Below are positions 22,289 to 30,359 of a stretch of 64,000 bases of DNA, in pieces; position 1 is the first letter of the stretch; every line of letters starts with the position of its first letter. Both the position numbers and the translations under genes were made by a program. The stretch comes from Anaerovoracaceae bacterium. Lineage in GTDB: Bacteria; Bacillota; Clostridia; Peptostreptococcales; Anaerovoracaceae. The DNA lies in contig JAZUNH010000059.1 in assembly GCA_045604065.1 (NCBI GenBank), positions 37,216 to 101,215 of the forward strand, read 5' to 3'. The notes under the pieces are model-generated. The model ran no database searches. It was given only the letters and a program-made list of their open reading frames with translations, and was not told where the DNA came from.

Positions 22289-25200
22289 TTATCCCAGCAG
22301 GCTCATGAGCTCTTCCTTTGTCAGGCTCGCGAGCGATTCAGAAGTGCCGGACAGTATGGCGTCCGCGAGATCTTTCTTCGCCGCCTGCATCTTTATTATC
22401 TTTTCTTCTATAGTAGCCGCGGCTATTAGCTTGTATACCGCGACAGGCCTGGTCTGGCCTATCCTGTGTGCTCTGTCGGTCGCCTGGTTCTGCGCCGCTA
22501 TGTTCCACCACGGGTCGTAGTGGATGACGACGTCGGCTCCGGTAAGGTTCAGGCCCGTGCCGCCGGCTTTGAGCGAGATCAGGAACAGAGGCGTGTCGTC
22601 GTCGTTGAAGTGGCGGACCAGCTGGAGGCGCTCCTCCTTCGGCGTGTCTCCGATGATCTTGTAATACGGGATCTCCTCTTTCTGGAGGTCCTTCTCGAGG
22701 AGCTCGAGCATGGAGGTGAACTGCGAGAAGAGAAGCACCTTATGCTCGCCGTCGATGGCCGTCTTGATGAGCTCGACCGCGGCCTCTCTCTTCGCCGATC
22801 CTCCGTCCCAGTGGTCAGATACGAGCGACGGGTCGCAGCAGATCTGGCGCAGCCTCGTAAGCTCTGCGAGAACTTCGAGCTTTTCTCCGCCGGACGTTCC
22901 CATATTGTTGATGAGGTTCCTGATCTGGACGACTTCGCCCTCGTAGAGCTCGCGCTGCTTCTTTCCGAACACCGCGTACTGGATCTCCTCGTTCTTCTCC
23001 GGCAGATCCGAGAGCACCTCTTCCTTCAGGCGGCGCAGTATGAACGGCTGGACCATCTTCTTGAGCTGCCTCGTGACTTCCTCGTCCTTCAGCTTCGCGA
23101 CAGGATTCTCGAACTTCTCCTTGAACGCGTTGTATGTATACAGGAAGCCCGGCATCAGGAAGTCGAATATGCTCCACAGCTCCGACAGCCTGTTCTCGAT
23201 AGGGGTGCCGGTAAGGGCGAACCTCACTTTGCTGGATATCACCTTCACGGATTTGCTCACCGCGGCGCCCGGGTTCTTGATGTACTGGGCCTCGTCCACT
23301 ATCTGGTACGAGAACTCCTTCTCGCTGTAGCTGTCTATGTCTCTCTTGAGCAGGTCGTATGAAGTGATGAGCACATCGTACTTCCTGTAGGAGTTTATTA
23401 TCATCTCACGCTCGTCCGGCGTGCCTACCACACATACGGTCTTTATCTCAGGAGCCCACTTGTCGAACTCCATCTGCCAGTTGAACACGAGTGAGGCAGG
23501 GCAGACGATGAGAGCCGTATCGAGCGTTCCGCGCTCTTTCTCGGCAAGGAGCACGGATATGGTCTCGAGCGTCTTGCCGAGGCCCATGTCGTCCGCGAGT
23601 ATCCCTCCGAAGTGAGCGGACGAGAGCGTCCGCATCCACTGGTAGGCGTAGACCTGATACGGCCTGAGCACGTCTTTCAGCGATTCAGGCACGTCGTAGT
23701 CGGAATCCGCGATGGAGTCAAGGTCCTTTATGATCTGCCTGAACCCGTGATCCCTGTCAGAAGCCACGTCCTCGTGCTCTTCGAGCATGTGGTTCAGGTA
23801 GTACGCCCTGTATACAGGAAGATGCATCTTCCCGGACACGAAATCCTTCAGCGGGACATCCAGTTTCTGGAACAGCTCGTCTACGAACCGCAGGGTATCC
23901 TGGTGTTCCAGGCTTATGAACGTGCCGTTGCTCAGGAGATGATATTTCTTCTTCTTCCTGTAGCTCTCAAGGAGCTCCAAGAGCTCTTTCGGCGTCAGCT
24001 CCTGAGGGTGGACCTGAAGGTCGAGCAGGTTGGAGCTCATCTTCACACCCACGCTTATCTGCGGGCAGTTCCTGAGCTTCAGCTTCTCGAACTTTTCCGT
24101 CGCGTGAACGTCTCCGAAATTAAGCAGCGTGTTCACGCCGTCGTTCAGTATCTCATATACGTTGTCGTCGGTCTTGTCGACCGCGTACTTTCCGTTAGGA
24201 AGGTCGATCGAAGGGAAGAATCCCTTGACTGCGTCTCTTACTCTTCCTTCCTGCCGCTTATCGTGCATGGTCCTCCTCGCGTTGATGATCATCTCCCTGG
24301 AGATGTCGCGCGGCGGGTTCTTTCCTGTGGCCTCGCCCTTTTCGTTCACGTCGGCAGGGAGCTCAGCCCCGCGGAGGTCTTCCTTATGCTTCTCTCTCTC
24401 CTCGGCCTCTTCTTCTTTCTTCTTTTTCCTGTCCGCTTTCTTTCCGGCGTCCTCTTTCTTCCCGTTCTCTTCCGAATCTATGCCGGAGGCCTTGCCGTGC
24501 GGAAGGACCGCAGGCTCGCCTGACGTCAGGTCGAATGAAGTGTCGCCGTATGTGACGAACGGACGGCAGAAGAGCTCGTCTTTGTCGGTATCAAGGAAGA
24601 AGTCGAACCTCGCTTCAGGAGGAAGGTTGCCGTTTATCTCGTCTTCGTCTTCTTCAGTCACCGTTATGTACGGGTTCCGCATGAGCTCCGGCATGATGCG
24701 GTAGTAGAACTCGGACATGTTATTCACGCCTATCGCGAATTCTGAGTGCCCGTTCGCCGGCCTGTCTTCCGAAGCCCCGGCCTCGTAGAACGGAGCTATC
24801 ACCCTGTATGTGCTGTCCTCGAGCTTAGTCAGCGTCTCGTCCGTAAGGAAGAAGTGGGACGATGTTCCCGAAAGGATGACAGGGGAGTCGAATATCACGG
24901 TGATCCCGTGGAATCCGCTGACCGCCTTGCCGTGCATCTTTCTCACGGTGACGTGGAAGTCCGGCACTCCTCCTCCGATCTCTATCCTGTCCTTACGGCT
25001 CTTTCCCTCGCGGCTCTGCCCGGTGTCGGTCATGTCCTCTTCACGGGCTTCCTGAACGGCCGCGGCTATCTCATCCTGGTCCAGCCTGGAGAGGGAGCTC
25101 CGGCTCCTGTTCCCCGCGGCCTGGGCTGAAGGCTTGATCTTCGGGCCGCCCTTGTATTTGTCGCTGAACTCGACTGAGAGCCCGGCGGCTATGTCGTAGA

Positions 25201-26398
25201 ACGTCTCGAGAGCCTCGCCCTCGAGAGCTATCTCCTTATGCTGTGTCAGGTCCGGGATAGGGTACTTGGATCTTGCCTGCAGCCTTTCGTTCACAGCCTG
25301 CGCGTTCATGACCTCTTTCTCGATGAGGCGGTAGTACCGCTCGTTCCTTCCCGAGAAAGTGCTGCCCTTGAAGATTATCCTGTCGCTCCTGCCGAGCTGG
25401 TATTCCTCGCCGGACCTTACCGAGTCGACTAGCGACGTCAGGTTCTTCACGACGAACATCTTGTCCTTGCCAATGGTGAACGTGAGGCTCACACGGCCCT
25501 CCGCGTCTCTTTCGATCTTAGGCTCTATGGAGCAGGCTTCAGGATCCAGAGTGCCGTCGAAGTCGTAGTACTGGTTCAGGTCGCTGTACCTTCTCAGGAA
25601 CCTTGCCGCTGCCCAGTCGGTCTCGTCACCCGGGTCGTTCTTCTTCAGCTCTTTATCCAGCGCGAGAAGAAGGCAGGTGGCGTGCTCGCACATCATCTTG
25701 CTCAGGTATTTCTCGTCCGGGCTGTTCACATAATGGAGGTTGCAGAGATCGCAGTCTATCCTGTCGAACCTGTCCCTCCTGAACTTCGCCGAGACTGTGC
25801 CGGAGGTGAAGTCCGTGGTAAAGGTGCCTTCGCAGGATCCCTTCATGTCTTCTCCCTCCTCTATGTCGGCCTTGACTTTGCCGAGCTCGAGCCTTCCGTC
25901 GGCAAGATCGATCCTCGCCTTGTCGACTATGTCGTGATAGAACAGGAGATCCTTGGTCATCTCTTCCATGTCGAAGAATGTCGGGGTCACTCCGTCCTCA
26001 TTAGTAAACGGCCTCGAATATTCTCTCGGCTTCTTGGCGCCGCCGTATTCCTCTTCCCATTTGATGATGGCGGCTGCCTCGTGGCAGCAGCGCCTGCCGG
26101 AGACCGCGTCGGCGCATGTGCATCTCATGGAAGGGCGTCCCTGGTTGAGGCCCTGTATGAGGGCTTTGTCATAGTCGTCCTTCTTCCTGCCGTAGCGGAA
26201 CTTCGCGACGCAGTATGTCGGACCGCCGGCGAATTCCTCGAGCTTCCCGCTGTCGAGGAGAGTATGTCCCTCGCGGACCACCTCTTCGTCAAAATCCTTC
26301 CGCCAGTCCTGCGGCTTGATGTTGCTTGTCTGTGATTTCATATCCGTATCACCCGTGACCTTTCGCGATGTGCCTTGAGGGCTTTTCCCGGAAGACAC
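22289..26398 (-). CDS. SWIM zinc-finger / SNF2-family helicase
   Basis: CTC...CCH and CDLC...CEH SWIM-like motifs; LRPYQ, ILADDMGLGKT, DEAQYIKN, LTGTPIENRLSELWS, SLKAGGTGLNLT, DRAHRIGQ. Confidence 0.95.
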   Translation of the reverse strand: MSSGKSPQGTSRKVTGDTDMKSQTSNIKPQDWRKDFDEEVVREGHTLLDSGKLEEFAGGPTYCVAKFRYGRKKDDYDKALIQGLNQGRPSMRCTCADAVSGRRCCHEAAAIIKWEEEYGGAKKPREYSRPFTNEDGVTPTFFDMEEMTKDLLFYHDIVDKARIDLADGRLELGKVKADIEEGEDMKGSCEGTFTTDFTSGTVSAKFRRDRFDRIDCDLCNLHYVNSPDEKYLSKMMCEHATCLLLALDKELKKNDPGDETDWAAARFLRRYSDLNQYYDFDGTLDPEACSIEPKIERDAEGRVSLTFTIGKDKMFVVKNLTSLVDSVRSGEEYQLGRSDRIIFKGSTFSGRNERYYRLIEKEVMNAQAVNERLQARSKYPIPDLTQHKEIALEGEALETFYDIAAGLSVEFSDKYKGGPKIKPSAQAAGNRSRSSLSRLDQDEIAAAVQEAREEDMTDTGQSREGKSRKDRIEIGGGVPDFHVTVRKMHGKAVSGFHGITVIFDSPVILSGTSSHFFLTDETLTKLEDSTYRVIAPFYEAGASEDRPANGHSEFAIGVNNMSEFYYRIMPELMRNPYITVTEEDEDEINGNLPPEARFDFFLDTDKDELFCRPFVTYGDTSFDLTSGEPAVLPHGKASGIDSEENGKKEDAGKKADRKKKKEEEAEEREKHKEDLRGAELPADVNEKGEATGKNPPRDISREMIINARRTMHDKRQEGRVRDAVKGFFPSIDLPNGKYAVDKTDDNVYEILNDGVNTLLNFGDVHATEKFEKLKLRNCPQISVGVKMSSNLLDLQVHPQELTPKELLELLESYRKKKKYHLLSNGTFISLEHQDTLRFVDELFQKLDVPLKDFVSGKMHLPVYRAYYLNHMLEEHEDVASDRDHGFRQIIKDLDSIADSDYDVPESLKDVLRPYQVYAYQWMRTLSSAHFGGILADDMGLGKTLETISVLLAEKERGTLDTALIVCPASLVFNWQMEFDKWAPEIKTVCVVGTPDEREMIINSYRKYDVLITSYDLLKRDIDSYSEKEFSYQIVDEAQYIKNPGAAVSKSVKVISSKVRFALTGTPIENRLSELWSIFDFLMPGFLYTYNAFKEKFENPVAKLKDEEVTRQLKKMVQPFILRRLKEEVLSDLPEKNEEIQYAVFGKKQRELYEGEVVQIRNLINNMGTSGGEKLEVLAELTRLRQICCDPSLVSDHWDGGSAKREAAVELIKTAIDGEHKVLLFSQFTSMLELLEKDLQKEEIPYYKIIGDTPKEERLQLVRHFNDDDTPLFLISLKAGGTGLNLTGADVVIHYDPWWNIAAQNQATDRAHRIGQTRPVAVYKLIAAATIEEKIIKMQAAKKDLADAILSGTSESLASLTKEELMSLLG

Positions 26399-26418: not shown

Positions 26419-27792
26419 CTACTTCCGCCAGGCGGCGCAGATGTCCTTGACCGCCCCGTCTATCTCATCTGAAGGTATCTGGTCATAGTAGAGCATGAGC
26501 TTTCCCGGCCCTCCGCCGAGAGGGATCATATGGAGCCTGAGCTTCTCGGCTTCTCTGAGAAGATCCTCAGCGGGCTTATCGGTTACGACGTCCAGCCTTA
26601 TGCTTATGCCGGACTTCGTGTTCCTGGCGGTGACAGTACCGCCTCCATATTTTGAAAAGGCGGAAAGCACTTCCCCGAGCTTCCTTGAATACAGCTTCCT
26701 GAGCTTTCTTATCCCGGTCTGGTATGATCCGTTCTCCATGTATTCGGCAAGGACCAGCTGTTCCACTTTAGAGCATGTCTGGTCATATCTGCTCATGCTT
26801 TTTTTCGAAATGGCGGAGAGCTCGGGAGGAAGGACCATGTAGCTTATCCTTATCGCCGGGAAAAGGGTGGATGAAAACGAGCCGAGGTATACGACGCTTC
26901 CAGCGCTGTCAATGCTTTTCAGGGCAGGGACCGGATTGCCGAAGTATCTGAGCTCGCTGTCGTAATCGTCTTCTATCACGACTGACCCGTTCTGCTCCGC
27001 CCACTCAAGCAGCCGGTATCTCCTCGCGGCAGGCATGACAGATCCTGTAGGGAACTGGTTTGACGGGCTCACGTATACAGCCGTCCCGATATTGACCGGG
27101 AGCCTCTCGATCTCTATGCCGTCTTCCCTGACCGGCACAGGACAGATGTTGAACCCGAAGTCGCTGAAGATGTGCCTTACAGGCATGTACCCGGGGTCTT
27201 CCACGTTCACGAAGTCGATGCCGATTTCTCTCAGCATTCCCGCGAGCCTGCTTGTAAGCTGCTGGACTCCGGCGCCTATGACTATGTCGCCCGGCCCCGC
27301 GGCTACTCCTCTCGCGCTGTAGAGATACCTTGAGATCTCTCTCCTCAGGGCGTACTCCCCCTGAGGGTCCTGAGGGGAAAGCATCTCTTCTGACTTCTCG
27401 TTCATTACCTTCGTGAAGCATTTCTTCCACTTGGCGAAATCGAAGCTGTCCGGATCACATCTGTATTTCGGCGTGTCTTTCTTCTCACGCTCCTCATATG
27501 AAGGTCCGCTCTCTCTGTCTCCGCCGGCGGCTTTGTCAGGCCCCGGCACAGAGGAGACGTAGAAGCCTGAGTTCGGCCTCGACTCCAGATATCCCTCTAT
27601 GATGAGCTGGTCGTACGCTCTCGCGCACGTTGTTATGCTCACGGAAAGCTGCCCCGAGAGATCGCGGAGGGAAGGGAGCCTTTCGCCGGCAAGAAAGTCG
27701 CCCCGCATGATGCCTGCCTTTATATAGTCATACAACTGTATATACAGAGATGTGCCGGAATTGTGCTTTAGATCCGCATATATGGGCTTCAT
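26419..27792 (-). CDS. MocR/PdxR-family regulator (GntR wHTH plus aminotransferase-like domain)
   Basis: LYIQLY...ERLPSLRDLS...AYDQLIIEGY HTH; SPSNQFPTG, IEDDYDSELRY, YLGSFSSTLFPAIRISY. Confidence 0.9.
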   Translation of the reverse strand: MKPIYADLKHNSGTSLYIQLYDYIKAGIMRGDFLAGERLPSLRDLSGQLSVSITTCARAYDQLIIEGYLESRPNSGFYVSSVPGPDKAAGGDRESGPSYEEREKKDTPKYRCDPDSFDFAKWKKCFTKVMNEKSEEMLSPQDPQGEYALRREISRYLYSARGVAAGPGDIVIGAGVQQLTSRLAGMLREIGIDFVNVEDPGYMPVRHIFSDFGFNICPVPVREDGIEIERLPVNIGTAVYVSPSNQFPTGSVMPAARRYRLLEWAEQNGSVVIEDDYDSELRYFGNPVPALKSIDSAGSVVYLGSFSSTLFPAIRISYMVLPPELSAISKKSMSRYDQTCSKVEQLVLAEYMENGSYQTGIRKLRKLYSRKLGEVLSAFSKYGGGTVTARNTKSGISIRLDVVTDKPAEDLLREAEKLRLHMIPLGGGPGKLMLYYDQIPSDEIDGAVKDICAAWRK

Positions 27793-27904
27793 ATTGCATG
27801 TATCTCCTGAATTGTCATCTGAAAAAACTGAATAATTGCATATTTTATGATATACACTTTACTGTTATTATATATACATCACAGAGAAAGGTCAACGAAG
27901 ACAT

Positions 27905-28438
27905 ATGGAAAGGAACACACAGGAAAGCCCTGTATATGAGCTGATGCTTACGGGCCTCATGGCGGCTCTCGTCATGGCGGCCACAAGCTTCTTCAGGATA
28001 CCTGTCGTCGCGACGAACGGGTACATACACCTCGGCGACGCCATGGTGTTCCTTTCTGTTATGATGCTTGGCCGCAGGAATGGGACGATCGCGGGAGCGT
28101 CGGGCTCAGCCCTGGCGGACCTGATAGGCGGCTACGCCCACTGGGTGCCGTGGACGTTCGTGATAAAGGGGATGATGGCTTTCGTGACAGCGTCCGTTCT
28201 GGAAGCGGGACAGGAAAAGAACGGGAAGGATCTTCCTGTGTCTCTTGCCGCTATGGCCGCCGGAAGCCTCGTGATGATCGCGGGCTACTTCTTGGCGCAC
28301 CGTGTCATATACGGTAACCTGGCAGCGCCTTTTGCCGCGCTTCCGGGGAACATATTACAGGCGGCGGCGGGGATCGTCATGGCAGAGATCATGTCGGCCG
28401 CGGTCAGGAAGGCCGCGCCGCAGATGTACCGCCCGTAG
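27905..28438 (+). CDS. ECF transporter S component (PdxU2/HmpT-like; likely vitamin B6 uptake)
   Basis: GYIHLGD...G.IAGASGSALADLIGGYAHWVPWTFVIKG; about 5-6 TMs; divergent from the MocR regulator. Confidence 0.8.
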   Translation: MERNTQESPVYELMLTGLMAALVMAATSFFRIPVVATNGYIHLGDAMVFLSVMMLGRRNGTIAGASGSALADLIGGYAHWVPWTFVIKGMMAFVTASVLEAGQEKNGKDLPVSLAAMAAGSLVMIAGYFLAHRVIYGNLAAPFAALPGNILQAAAGIVMAEIMSAAVRKAAPQMYRP

Positions 28439-28709: not shown

Positions 28710-28761
28710 CCTTGATACGTCCCGGCAAAAGTGAGATAATATGGAAAAAAGGAGGACCGCC

Positions 28762-29499
28762 ATGGAAAAGACACTTAAAGACATAATAGATGAAGCGGAG
28801 AACGTGGTCTTCTTCGGAGGCGCGGGCGTTTCAACAGAGAGCGGCATACCGGACTTCCGCTCCAAGGACGGACTGTATCACGCGGAGCAGAGCTACGGAT
28901 ATCCTCCGGAAACGATCCTGTCGCACACGTTCTATATGGAGCATAACGAGACGTTCTTCACGTATTACAAGGAGAACCTCATCGCAAAGGACGTACAGCC
29001 GAACAAGGCGCATCTCGCGCTCGCCGAGCTGGAGAGGCGCGGCAAGCTGAAGGCGGTCATTACACAGAACATAGACGGGCTGCACCAGAAAGCCGGAAGC
29101 AGGAACGTGCTGGAGCTCCACGGAAGCACGCTCAGGAACACATGCGAGAAATGCGGGGCGCACTTTGACCTTGACTACGTAATGGATGAGGCGAACTGCG
29201 ACGGGCCGGTTCCTCACTGCAATATATGCGGAGGAAGGATCAAGCCTGACGTTGTCCTGTATGAGGAGATGCTGGACAACGATGTGATGATAGCAGCTAT
29301 AAGGGCGATACAGGAAGCCGATGTCATGATAGTCGGCGGGACGTCGCTCAACGTTTATCCGGCGGCGGGACTCATCTCGTATTTCAGGGGGAAGCACCTG
29401 GTGCTGATAAACCGCTCGGTGACACCGTATGACGACGCGGCGGATCTTGTGATCCACGACACCATAGGGAAAGTGCTCGGAGAGCTTGTTGAAGGATAA
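28762..29499 (+). CDS. cobB: NAD-dependent protein deacylase (sirtuin)
   Basis: GAGVSTESGIPDFRS, TQNIDGLH, ELHG, CEKC...CNIC, GGTSLNVYPAA; GGAGG RBS before ATG 28762. Confidence 0.93.
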   Translation: MEKTLKDIIDEAENVVFFGGAGVSTESGIPDFRSKDGLYHAEQSYGYPPETILSHTFYMEHNETFFTYYKENLIAKDVQPNKAHLALAELERRGKLKAVITQNIDGLHQKAGSRNVLELHGSTLRNTCEKCGAHFDLDYVMDEANCDGPVPHCNICGGRIKPDVVLYEEMLDNDVMIAAIRAIQEADVMIVGGTSLNVYPAAGLISYFRGKHLVLINRSVTPYDDAADLVIHDTIGKVLGELVEG

Positions 29500-29519: not shown

Positions 29520-30359
29520 ATGACAGATAAGAAGGACAGAAAACTCAACATAATGGTCGTGAACGACGACGGGATAACCTCGCGCGGGCTGAGAGAGCTG
29601 GTGGATGCGCTGAGGCCCGTGGCGAACATATACGTATCGGCTCCAGACGGGGAGCACAGCGGGGCGAGCCAGTCAATCACGATAACGGAGCCGATCAGAG
29701 TATATGACTTCGACTATCCGGGCGCGGAGGCCGCGTACGCTGTCACGGGGACCCCGACTGACTGCGTCAAGGCCGGGCTGCAGTTCTTCAAAGAGCGCGG
29801 CATCGAAATGGATATGGTGTACTCGGGGATTAACATCGGGAGCAATTTCGGGAAAGACACCCTTTACTCAGGGACCATAGGAGCAGCGATGGAGGCGGCG
29901 CTGTCGAACGTGAGAGCCGTCGCCGTATCGGTGGACAGCCACAGCGCGACACATTTCGAGACGGCGTGCGAAGTTGCTCTTGCGGTGGTCGACAGGTCCA
30001 TGAACGAGCTCACTCCTGATACCATACTGAACATCAACGCGCCGGACCTTCCTCCTGAAGAGGTGAAGGGCATCAGATATACTGCGCTCGGGAACAGGTT
30101 CTATATCGATAAATTCATACCTGTCGAATCAGAGGACGGGGACAGCTACATGCTGGACGGAGCCCCGCTCGACCTGAACGATATAGAGGAAAAATATGAC
30201 GTTACCGCTACATGGGACAATTACGTCTCGATCACGCCGCTCCAGTTCGACTACACCGCGCACGATATGATCGGGAAGGTCGCCTCATGGGATATAAGGC
30301 TCGAGAAAGAAGAGACCGCCAGGGCGTCCGGCGGCACCAGGGAGAACATGCCGGAGTAG
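29520..30359 (+). CDS. surE: 5'/3'-nucleotidase SurE
   Basis: VVNDDGI, SGASQSIT, GTPTDCV, SGINIGSNFG, YSGTIGAAMEA, SITPL. Confidence 0.95.
   Translation: MTDKKDRKLNIMVVNDDGITSRGLRELVDALRPVANIYVSAPDGEHSGASQSITITEPIRVYDFDYPGAEAAYAVTGTPTDCVKAGLQFFKERGIEMDMVYSGINIGSNFGKDTLYSGTIGAAMEAALSNVRAVAVSVDSHSATHFETACEVALAVVDRSMNELTPDTILNINAPDLPPEEVKGIRYTALGNRFYIDKFIPVESEDGDSYMLDGAPLDLNDIEEKYDVTATWDNYVSITPLQFDYTAHDMIGKVASWDIRLEKEETARASGGTRENMPE

Follow-up and report, generated by a model that had tools for sequence, protein, structure and literature searches.

A PdxR-lineage regulator with serine in place of the Schiff-base lysine, divergent from a vitamin B6-type ECF S component in an Anaerovoracaceae bacterium

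Regulators of the MocR family are described as transcription factors dependent on pyridoxal 5'-phosphate (PLP), with an active-site lysine conserved in all subgroups (PMC6677901, PMC10450172). The closest known group to the system presented here is comprised of PdxR of Bacillus (Shouchella) clausii (structures 7pq9, 7zla, 7zn5, 7zpa and 7zth) and of PdxR proteins of Listeria, Streptococcus and Corynebacterium. In B. clausii PdxR the switch from the apo to the holo form is steric, since the PLP ring displaces Tyr278 by about 10 Å and the dimer opens, and the PLP cavity is lined from the other monomer by the tract Ser335-Ser342 (PMC10450172). PdxR regulons that include pdxU (transport) or pdxK (salvage) were predicted by comparative genomics (Suvorova and Rodionov 2016, PMC5320631), and the locus type in which PdxR stands beside a B6 uptake gene is already known. 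Here we describe a locus of this type in an Anaerovoracaceae bacterium (assembly GCA_045604065.1, contig JAZUNH010000059.1, positions 37,216 to 101,215); the whole analysed stretch of 64,000 nucleotides is referred to as the window. The locus is comprised of a PdxR-type regulator gene and a divergent gene for the S component of an energy-coupling factor (ECF) transporter, and the regulator carries serine, Ser308, at the position of the lysine that forms the internal aldimine with PLP. Judged from sequence, we consider it probable that this protein regulates B6 uptake and senses B6 phosphates with no need of an internal aldimine.

The regulator, its two domains and the position in question are located as follows.

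26419..27792, minus strand: gene of the MocR/PdxR-type regulator without the lysine, 457 amino acids (open reading frame, Pfam, NCBIfam, PDB relatives)
27556..27744, minus strand: GntR-type winged helix-turn-helix (wHTH) domain, residues 17-79 (PF00392, 54.2 bits)
26422..27459, minus strand: effector and dimerisation domain, aminotransferase-like with fold type I, approximately residues 112-457 (PDB alignments, fold search)
26869..26871, minus strand: TCC codon of Ser308, the position of the PLP Schiff-base lysine (alignments to GabR Lys312 and B. clausii PdxR Lys309)

An earlier note on this DNA, made from its letters alone, had proposed a PdxR-like regulator, and the NCBIfam PdxR equivalog NF052282 bears this out with a score of 432.2 bits against a cut-off of 320, while the protein is far below the cut-offs of the GabR, MocR, YczR, EhuR and PtsJ models. 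Its closest solved relatives in the HMMER search are B. clausii PdxR (7pq9, E 1.6e-86) and Bacillus subtilis GabR (4n0b, E 3e-67). Aminotransferases are also found among the PDB matches, and Pfam reports a weak class I/II aminotransferase match (PF00155) in the C-terminal domain. An AlphaFold model built from 135 homologs has a predicted local distance difference test (pLDDT) of 93.9, and its domain resembling aspartate aminotransferase (AAT) superposes on PdxR and GabR at 2.3-2.8 Å in the fold search. The fold is regarded as intact because a confident model superposes on the C-terminal domain of these two proteins. In the wHTH, Arg43, Ser52 and Thr55 are invariant across the clade of lysine-less regulators delimited below; their equivalents touch DNA in B. 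clausii PdxR (PMC10450172).

The same serine had been placed at 26869-26871 in the earlier note, and both the codon TCC and the HMMER alignments agree with it. The corresponding segment of the open reading frame is YLGSFSSTLFPAIRISY, and FSK of 7pq9 and of 4n0b aligns opposite FSS of the query in each alignment. Traits of MocR/PdxR proteins present here are the GntR wHTH, the aminotransferase-like domain, the PdxR score above the cut-off, the PLP contacts other than lysine, and a divergent B6 target with a repeat operator; the trait that is missing is the internal-aldimine lysine (GabR Lys312, PdxR Lys309). On these comparisons the regulator is assigned to the PdxR lineage by descent, yet by the biochemical criterion of the lysine it would not be a canonical PLP-aldimine regulator.

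Conservation of the substitution in orthologs, for which the note had suggested an alignment, is borne out. All 120 nearest clusters at 90% identity, 53-91% identical to the query, read GSFSS, well outside what chance would give. An exhaustive HMMER search over representatives of 50%-identity clusters was used to extend the comparison, and the best 150 PdxR-like representatives were taken. At the lysine position 95 of them have Lys, 21 Ser, 13 Thr, 12 Arg, and 9 Ala, Gly, Gln, Asn or Glu, making 55 without lysine. The query is situated inside a 15-row Ser/Ala clade (support 97-100, starred, in two trees), which is nested in a lysine-free clade of 27-28 rows carrying Ser, Thr, Gly or Ala (FastTree support 84, IQ-TREE SH-aLRT, i.e. 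approximate likelihood ratio test, 93). Thr lineages form the base of this lysine-free clade, and the clade as a whole is nested within the PdxR-like tree. Starred branches demand at least 11 changes between Lys and non-Lys among the 142 rows of the tree, with independent losses outside the clade of the query as well.

Serine codons in the fetched loci are TCN in 36 cases, represented by all four codons, and AGY in 4 cases; the use of all of these indicates that the codon drifts while serine is held. A route by way of Thr (ACN), starting from Lys (AAR) and ending in Ser (TCN), is compatible with the codons. A survey of 201 genomes of the organism's order disclosed the Ser/Ala form in 24 of the 27 sampled genomes of its own family, the Thr or Ser form in all 6 genomes of a second family, and a lysine-less form in 12 of 27 genomes of a third. 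Among relatives in public genomes, those with names are uncultured Eubacterium, Anaerovoracaceae, Mogibacterium and Candidatus Copromorpha. This distribution identifies the lysine-less clade, at the level of sequence, as an old and widespread PdxR subclade with a hydroxyl residue, Ser or Thr, in the place of lysine.

Lysine is also exchanged in other PdxR-like lineages, for Arg (12 representatives), Gln, Asn, Glu or Gly (L151, L162; P0174, P0184, P0186, P0214 and others). The Asn form (locus L151) and the Gln form (locus L162) both adjoin pdxS; the latter is also without the phosphate-binding Arg, and the former keeps this Arg and the Ser residues.

To characterize the ligand pocket, 99 non-redundant lysine-less sequences were compared with 170 lysine-bearing ones. 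Three codons of the query are of particular interest.

26968..26970, minus strand: Asp275, partner of the pyridine N1 (GabR Asp279, PdxR Asp276), present in 98/99 lysine-less and 169/170 lysine-bearing sequences
26848..26850, minus strand: Arg315, the phosphate-binding Arg (GabR Arg319, PdxR Arg316; alignment to solved structures)
26767..26769, minus strand: Lys342, conserved in the clade and a candidate substitute lysine, adjoining the cavity tract of the partner subunit

Position 308 is Ser in 85, Thr in 11 and Ala in 3 of the lysine-less sequences, so that the two hydroxyl residues account for 97%, and it is followed by Thr309 in 90% of the clade. Asp275, Tyr277, Ser305, Ser307, Ser317, Tyr202 (or Phe), Phe247 and Gly175 are kept at 92-100% in lysine-less as in lysine-bearing sequences. 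Within the lysine-less clade, the phosphate-contacting residues Ser305, Ser307, Ser317 and Arg/Lys315 and the ring-N1 partner Asp275 reach 98-100%. Position 315 is Lys in 56 and Arg in 43 of the 99 lysine-less sequences, with Arg in the query, and Arg in 167 of the 170 lysine-bearing ones.

Several positions changed along with the lysine: Gln178 (cavity Val178 in B. clausii), Asn245 (His in the lysine type), Cys340 and Lys342. The last two are located in or beside the tract by which the partner subunit lines the cavity (Ser335-Ser342 in B. clausii), and Lys342 maps to B. clausii Arg343, immediately after it. Lys342 is present in 97% of the lysine-less clade, compared with Lys in 21% and Arg in 31% of lysine-bearing sequences.

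The gene divergent from the regulator is a solitary S component.

27905..28438, plus strand: solitary ECF S component, PdxU/PdxU2 (HmpT)-like, 177 amino acids (PF07155, 127.6 bits)

It belongs to PF07155/COG4720 and has hydrophobic segments along its whole length. The B6-type assignment of the earlier note agrees with two observations: the only PDB sequence match is chain S of 4hzu (HmpT/PdxU2 of Lactobacillus brevis, E 1.1e-14), and relatives of the gene form an operon with a pyridoxal-kinase-like gene. Such operons, with S component and Phos_pyr_kin (pdxK-like) genes, were found in L020, L109 and L113, and in L071 the S component stands beside a pdxK-like gene; one genus has the order S component, then pyridoxal-kinase-like gene. 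HmpT is reported as a pyridoxamine carrier, and Glu41, His84, Gln87, Tyr120, Asn140 and Gln143 as its substrate-binding residues (PMC4860826). At these six positions the S component keeps Tyr120, Asn140 and Gln143, and has Asp for Glu41, Lys88 for His84 and Met91 for Gln87. The resulting signature (D45, K88, M91, Y128, N149, Q152) is kept in 48 homologs beside PdxR-like genes (L014-L145), by which the locus is taken to mark a distinct S-component subfamily. Because the signature differs from HmpT at three of six positions, pyridoxamine is not established as the substrate, and the preferred vitamer may differ from that of HmpT. More speculatively, the conserved pocket Lys88 could suit pyridoxal or a phosphorylated vitamer.

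An S component adjoins a PdxR-like regulator in 32 loci of the order survey. The neighbours of the two regulator types are distributed as follows.

Lysine-less (Ser/Thr/Ala), 40 loci: divergent S component 22, ecfA-ecfA'-ecfT operon 5, pdxST 0, gene resembling pyridoxamine-phosphate oxidase (PNPOx-like) 0, other 12, contig end 1
Lysine-bearing, 27 loci: divergent S component 10, ecfA-ecfA'-ecfT operon 0, pdxST 8, PNPOx-like 5, other 4, contig end 0

S components beside lysine-less and lysine-bearing regulators have one common binding-site signature, and the idea that loss of lysine tracks a changed transporter specificity was rejected on this ground. A strict equation of lysine loss with uptake rather than synthesis was rejected too, since lysine-bearing sisters face S components and the Asn and Gln variants face pdxS. 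The loss is thus tied neither to a new transporter substrate nor to uptake alone, as the lysine-type sisters and the Asn variant indicate. In five genomes a Ser-type regulator coexists with a separate regulator of the Lys type, the latter next to pdxST; three of these genomes, G124, G154 and G161, have an S component opposite the Ser-type gene.

In L097, L099, L100 and L103 (one genus) and in L105, L106 and L174 (another), what lies opposite the lysine-less regulator is not an S component but the shared ecfA-ecfA'-ecfT-trmB-like operon. In the latter genus the first gene of the operon encodes a membrane protein of the TMEM164 family (PF14808), which could be an unrecognised substitute for the S component.

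In the organism's own genome, the shared EcfA-EcfA'-EcfT module is located on contig C70, where two ATP-binding cassette (ABC) ATPases are followed by a CbiQ-type T component (group II layout). A second, dedicated ECF system is present at G000:C21:422-4107, comprised of a 336-amino-acid S component (PF07155/PF12822), a fused double ABC ATPase (556 amino acids) and a T component. PdxS, PdxT and PdxJ were not found in this genome, which is 93% complete, and the family as sampled rarely has PdxS (3 of 40 genomes). Because these three genes are missing, the lineage is apparently auxotrophic for B6. The class I/II aminotransferase family has 12 matches in the genome, including the regulator itself.

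The search for a B6 kinase gave no clear PdxK in the genome; the one PF08543 match, a weak one on contig C65, belongs to a PfkB sugar kinase and was rejected. About 9 of the 40 sampled family genomes contain a pdxK-like gene such as adjoins S components. The absent kinase looks like a hole in the salvage pathway or points to import of a phosphorylated vitamer. A PNPOx-like flavoprotein gene is situated at G000:C59:103402-103920, about 2 kb past the end of the window (PF12900 80.8 bits, PF01243 46 bits); no other gene resembling pyridoxamine-phosphate oxidase was found in the genome.

Adjoining the S component are genes for a Sir2-family deacetylase (28741-29499) and a SurE-like protein (29520-30359). 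This pair, or one of its members, is also beside the regulator in L014, L016, L096, L102 and L111, and synteny is conserved in this respect. Directly 3' of the regulator and on the same strand, a 1369-amino-acid SNF2-type helicase-like protein is encoded at 22289-26398 (minus strand), with a homolog in the same place in L014.

The regulator and S-component genes are separated by the intergenic region 27793-27904, as delimited in the earlier note. An operator motif was learnt from 30 upstream regions, and the position weight matrix (PWM) was then scored on the window. The half-site consensus is ATATACAGTT. In many of the 30 regions two direct sites, separated by 24 bp, are found at about -51 and -27 relative to the regulator start codon, and several have an additional inverted site at about -67. 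The predicted sites and promoters of this locus are the following.

27850..27859, plus strand: operator box 1, ATATACACTT, in inverse orientation to boxes 2 and 3 (PWM 9.1 bits)
27834..27843, minus strand: operator box 2, ATATGCAATT, direct repeat, kept at about -51 in related loci (PWM 10.6 bits)
27810..27819, minus strand: operator box 3, GATGACAATT, direct repeat 24 bp from box 2, spacing kept in related loci (PWM 5.0 bits)
27792..27801, minus strand: possible fourth half-site, ACATGCAATA, which takes in the final base of the regulator start codon (PWM 7.4 bits)
27867..27895, minus strand: predicted regulator promoter, TTGACC, 17-nt spacer and TATAAT (11/12 consensus positions)
27863..27871, plus strand: candidate extended -10 (TGnTATTAT) of the S-component promoter (read from sequence)

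Box 1 is of the inverted type about 67 nt before the regulator start codon that recurs in several related loci. The heptamer ATTGCAT occurs at 27793 and again at 27835. Only 17 sites above 9 bits were detected in the 64 kb on both strands. The triple box arrangement was observed at this locus alone in the organism's genome: a candidate triplet on contig C37, between a Na+/H+ antiporter gene and a gene for a LysR-type regulator, is not convincing, and the genome-wide scan gave no further convincing ones. The regulon is for this reason considered local. No riboswitch was found in the intergenic region by an Rfam scan.

TTGAC and TATAAT of the regulator promoter are kept in upstream regions of related loci. 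The operator boxes lie downstream of its -10 element, an arrangement suggestive of autorepression. The reverse complement of the candidate extended -10, TATAATA[AGT]CA, is present in L014, L095, L098, L101 and L104. The regulator TATAAT on the minus strand shares 5 nt with TGnTATTAT of the opposite strand (27863-27872), and the two divergent promoters may compete for RNA polymerase. Box 2 would fall just upstream of the -35 position of the S-component promoter and box 1 in its spacer. The layout parallels the logic of two direct and one inverted repeat of B. clausii PdxR.

The reading that we favour can be set out as follows. In a host unable to make B6, a regulator of PdxR lineage would control the divergent B6 ECF S component and its own gene. 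With Ser/Thr at the place of lysine, it would keep the phospho-pyridoxyl pocket, remodelled at several cavity-lining positions, and we infer that a 5'-phosphorylated B6 vitamer is bound there non-covalently. The pyridine ring of the ligand would displace the cavity-filling Tyr277, and the dimer would move between two modes by a steric switch as in B. clausii PdxR; because the switch of the latter is steric, a non-covalent ligand could trigger it as well. Uptake would be activated by a dimer seated on boxes 3 and 2, the direct repeats that immediately precede a weak S-component promoter. On boxes 2 and 1, the inverted pair that covers the promoter core, the dimer would shut off both uptake and the regulator's own promoter.

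PLP is put forward as the most likely ligand, and pyridoxamine 5'-phosphate (PMP) could also fit. PLP is suggested by the Asn variant that faces pdxS and by the Lys-type sisters that control the same S-component subfamily. The earlier note had proposed non-covalent sensing of non-aldehyde vitamers, i.e. pyridoxine, pyridoxamine or their phosphates. Its first element is retained as the most economical reading, while a non-aldehyde vitamer as the ligand is a possibility only; the unphosphorylated ones, pyridoxine and pyridoxamine, are unlikely because phosphate contacts and Asp275 are conserved at 98-100% in the lysine-less clade.

Some observations weigh against the favoured reading. The nearest lysine-bearing relatives regulate the same S-component subfamily, and loss of lysine is therefore not needed for regulation of the S component. 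A B6 gene is not adjacent in 12 of the 40 lysine-less loci. The S-component promoter and the logic of activation and repression come from consensus reading and from the analogy with B. clausii. At 93% completeness of the genome, absence of pdx genes is no proof. Finally, Lys342 of the partner subunit, or Lys315 (56% of the clade), might form an aldimine.

A broader proposal, to which we give some weight while doubting it, is that the Ser/Thr clade represents a separate effector class of MocR proteins. Members would read PMP or pyridoxine 5'-phosphate (PNP), or make a reversible hemiacetal or hydrogen-bond contact with PLP. There would then be two parallel B6 circuits, one with Lys-type PdxR responding to PLP and governing synthesis, and the other with the Ser type responding to the salvage pool and governing uptake.

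Among the rival explanations, a sensor specific for PMP or PNP survives best, and still we regard it as unlikely. According to it, the change from Lys to Ser/Thr retunes the pocket for non-aldehyde phosphates, so that the uptake regulator reads the first salvage product (pyridoxamine to PMP) and Lys-type PdxR paralogs read PLP. It is consistent with the kept phosphate and ring-N1 contacts and the lost aldehyde-reactive lysine, with the specific retention of a hydroxyl, and with Ser308 and Thr309, whose hydroxyls could hydrogen-bond the 4'-amine. Fold type I enzymes with His in place of Lys (ColD, E1 dehydratases) use PMP, and offer an analogy for a lysine-less, PMP-dependent protein. The five genomes with both regulator types (an S component opposite the Ser type in three) suggest two different signals, and the solved relative of the transporter, HmpT/PdxU2, is reported to carry pyridoxamine (PMC4860826). 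However, the Asn variant of L151, with Arg and Ser residues intact, faces pdxS, where PLP is the expected signal. Moreover, Lys-bearing sister regulators control S components of identical binding-site signature, this signature differs from HmpT at half of the six positions, and no sequence feature separates a PMP pocket from a PLP pocket.

A relocated Schiff base is less likely, indeed rather improbable in our estimate. PLP would be bound covalently through Lys342 of the partner subunit, or through Lys315 in those members that have it. The earlier note had named a nearby lysine that substitutes structurally as a refutation of its proposal, and Lys342 remains a candidate for this role by its prevalence in the clade (97% against 21% in lysine-bearing sequences) and its place after the cavity tract of the partner monomer. 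Replacement of the phosphate-binding Arg by Lys in the lysine-less clade only (56/99) points in the same direction. On the other hand, about half of lysine-bearing relatives are also basic at position 342, which makes it no new feature, and the query itself has Arg315. The equivalents of 342 and 315 in aminotransferases bind the substrate carboxylate and the phosphate, several angstroms from C4', and this also speaks against an aldimine at either residue.

To the same low degree we credit a ligand-blind regulator, in which the aminotransferase-like domain would do no more than dimerise and bend DNA, with control exerted through regulator abundance or another factor. It would account for the loss of the catalytic, anchoring lysine, for the lysine-less loci without an adjacent B6 gene, and for the distant Gln variant of L162, from which the phosphate Arg is missing as well. 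Nevertheless, Asp275, Ser305, Ser307, Ser317, Arg/Lys315, Tyr202 and Phe247 are kept at 92-100% in a clade that has diverged to about 40% identity, which is sensible only if these residues are ligand contacts. A sequencing error, a pseudogene or a strain-private mutation, the last of which the earlier note had considered as a way to refute its claim, is ruled out for practical purposes by the intact reading frame, the serine of all 120 nearest clusters, the 24 of 27 family genomes and the varied synonymous codons, and no point in its support was found.

In this data set about one third of the PdxR-like clusters nearest to the query are without the lysine, as opposed to its stated conservation in the MocR family. 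The lysine-less clade spans a whole family of gut and rumen anaerobes apparently unable to make B6. No description of a lysine-less MocR/PdxR clade was found in the literature searched, in which subscription papers were partly outside reach and an earlier mention is possible. If B6 is sensed without an aldimine, the step that signals in PdxR-type regulators is something other than the covalent bond, the range of effectors in the family (PLP versus PMP/PNP) turns into a question that is easy to test, and names in databases should be corrected. The name of the curated PdxR model, "pyridoxine biosynthesis transcription factor", seems a misfit for a protein predicted to control uptake in a host without biosynthesis genes. 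Should the clade be a separate effector class, MocR proteins in general would have no need of the internal aldimine for signalling. The locus also exposes the missing B6 kinase in genomes of the family.

The regulons predicted by Suvorova and Rodionov (PMC5320631) have the same locus layout as the one presented here; the lysine and other ligand residues of the effector domain are unmentioned there, whereas the regulator clade of this locus is lysine-less. The S component shares the Pfam family PF07155 with L. brevis HmpT/PdxU2 (4hzu chain S), along with Tyr120, Asn140 and Gln143 and with Glu41 as Asp, and differs from it in Lys88 for His84 and Met91 for Gln87, both kept in the 48 homologs. B. 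subtilis GabR (4n0b, 5t4j) has the same MocR architecture, about 30% identity with the regulator and equivalents of its Asp279, Tyr281, Ser311 and Arg319. GabR, however, needs PLP bound to Lys312 in order to form the external aldimine with γ-aminobutyric acid (GABA), and transaldimination is impossible with Ser308.

Likeness to B. clausii PdxR extends to the GntR wHTH with a fold type I domain (36-37% identity, AAT-like superposition at 2.5-2.8 Å), to Asp, Ser and Arg of the PLP "quartet" together with Tyr202, Phe247 and Tyr277, and to the divergent position relative to a B6 gene with an operator of two direct and one inverted repeat (PMC10450172). The differences are Ser308 for Lys309, Gln for the cavity residue Val178 and Asp for His338 of the tract from the other monomer. 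The half-site is ATATACAGTT, accompanied in the wHTH by Leu42, Asp44, Ile53 and Asn74-Ser75 in place of Lys42, Lys44, Gln53 and Arg74-Lys75. The target is an ECF S component and not pdxST, in a host without B6 synthesis genes.

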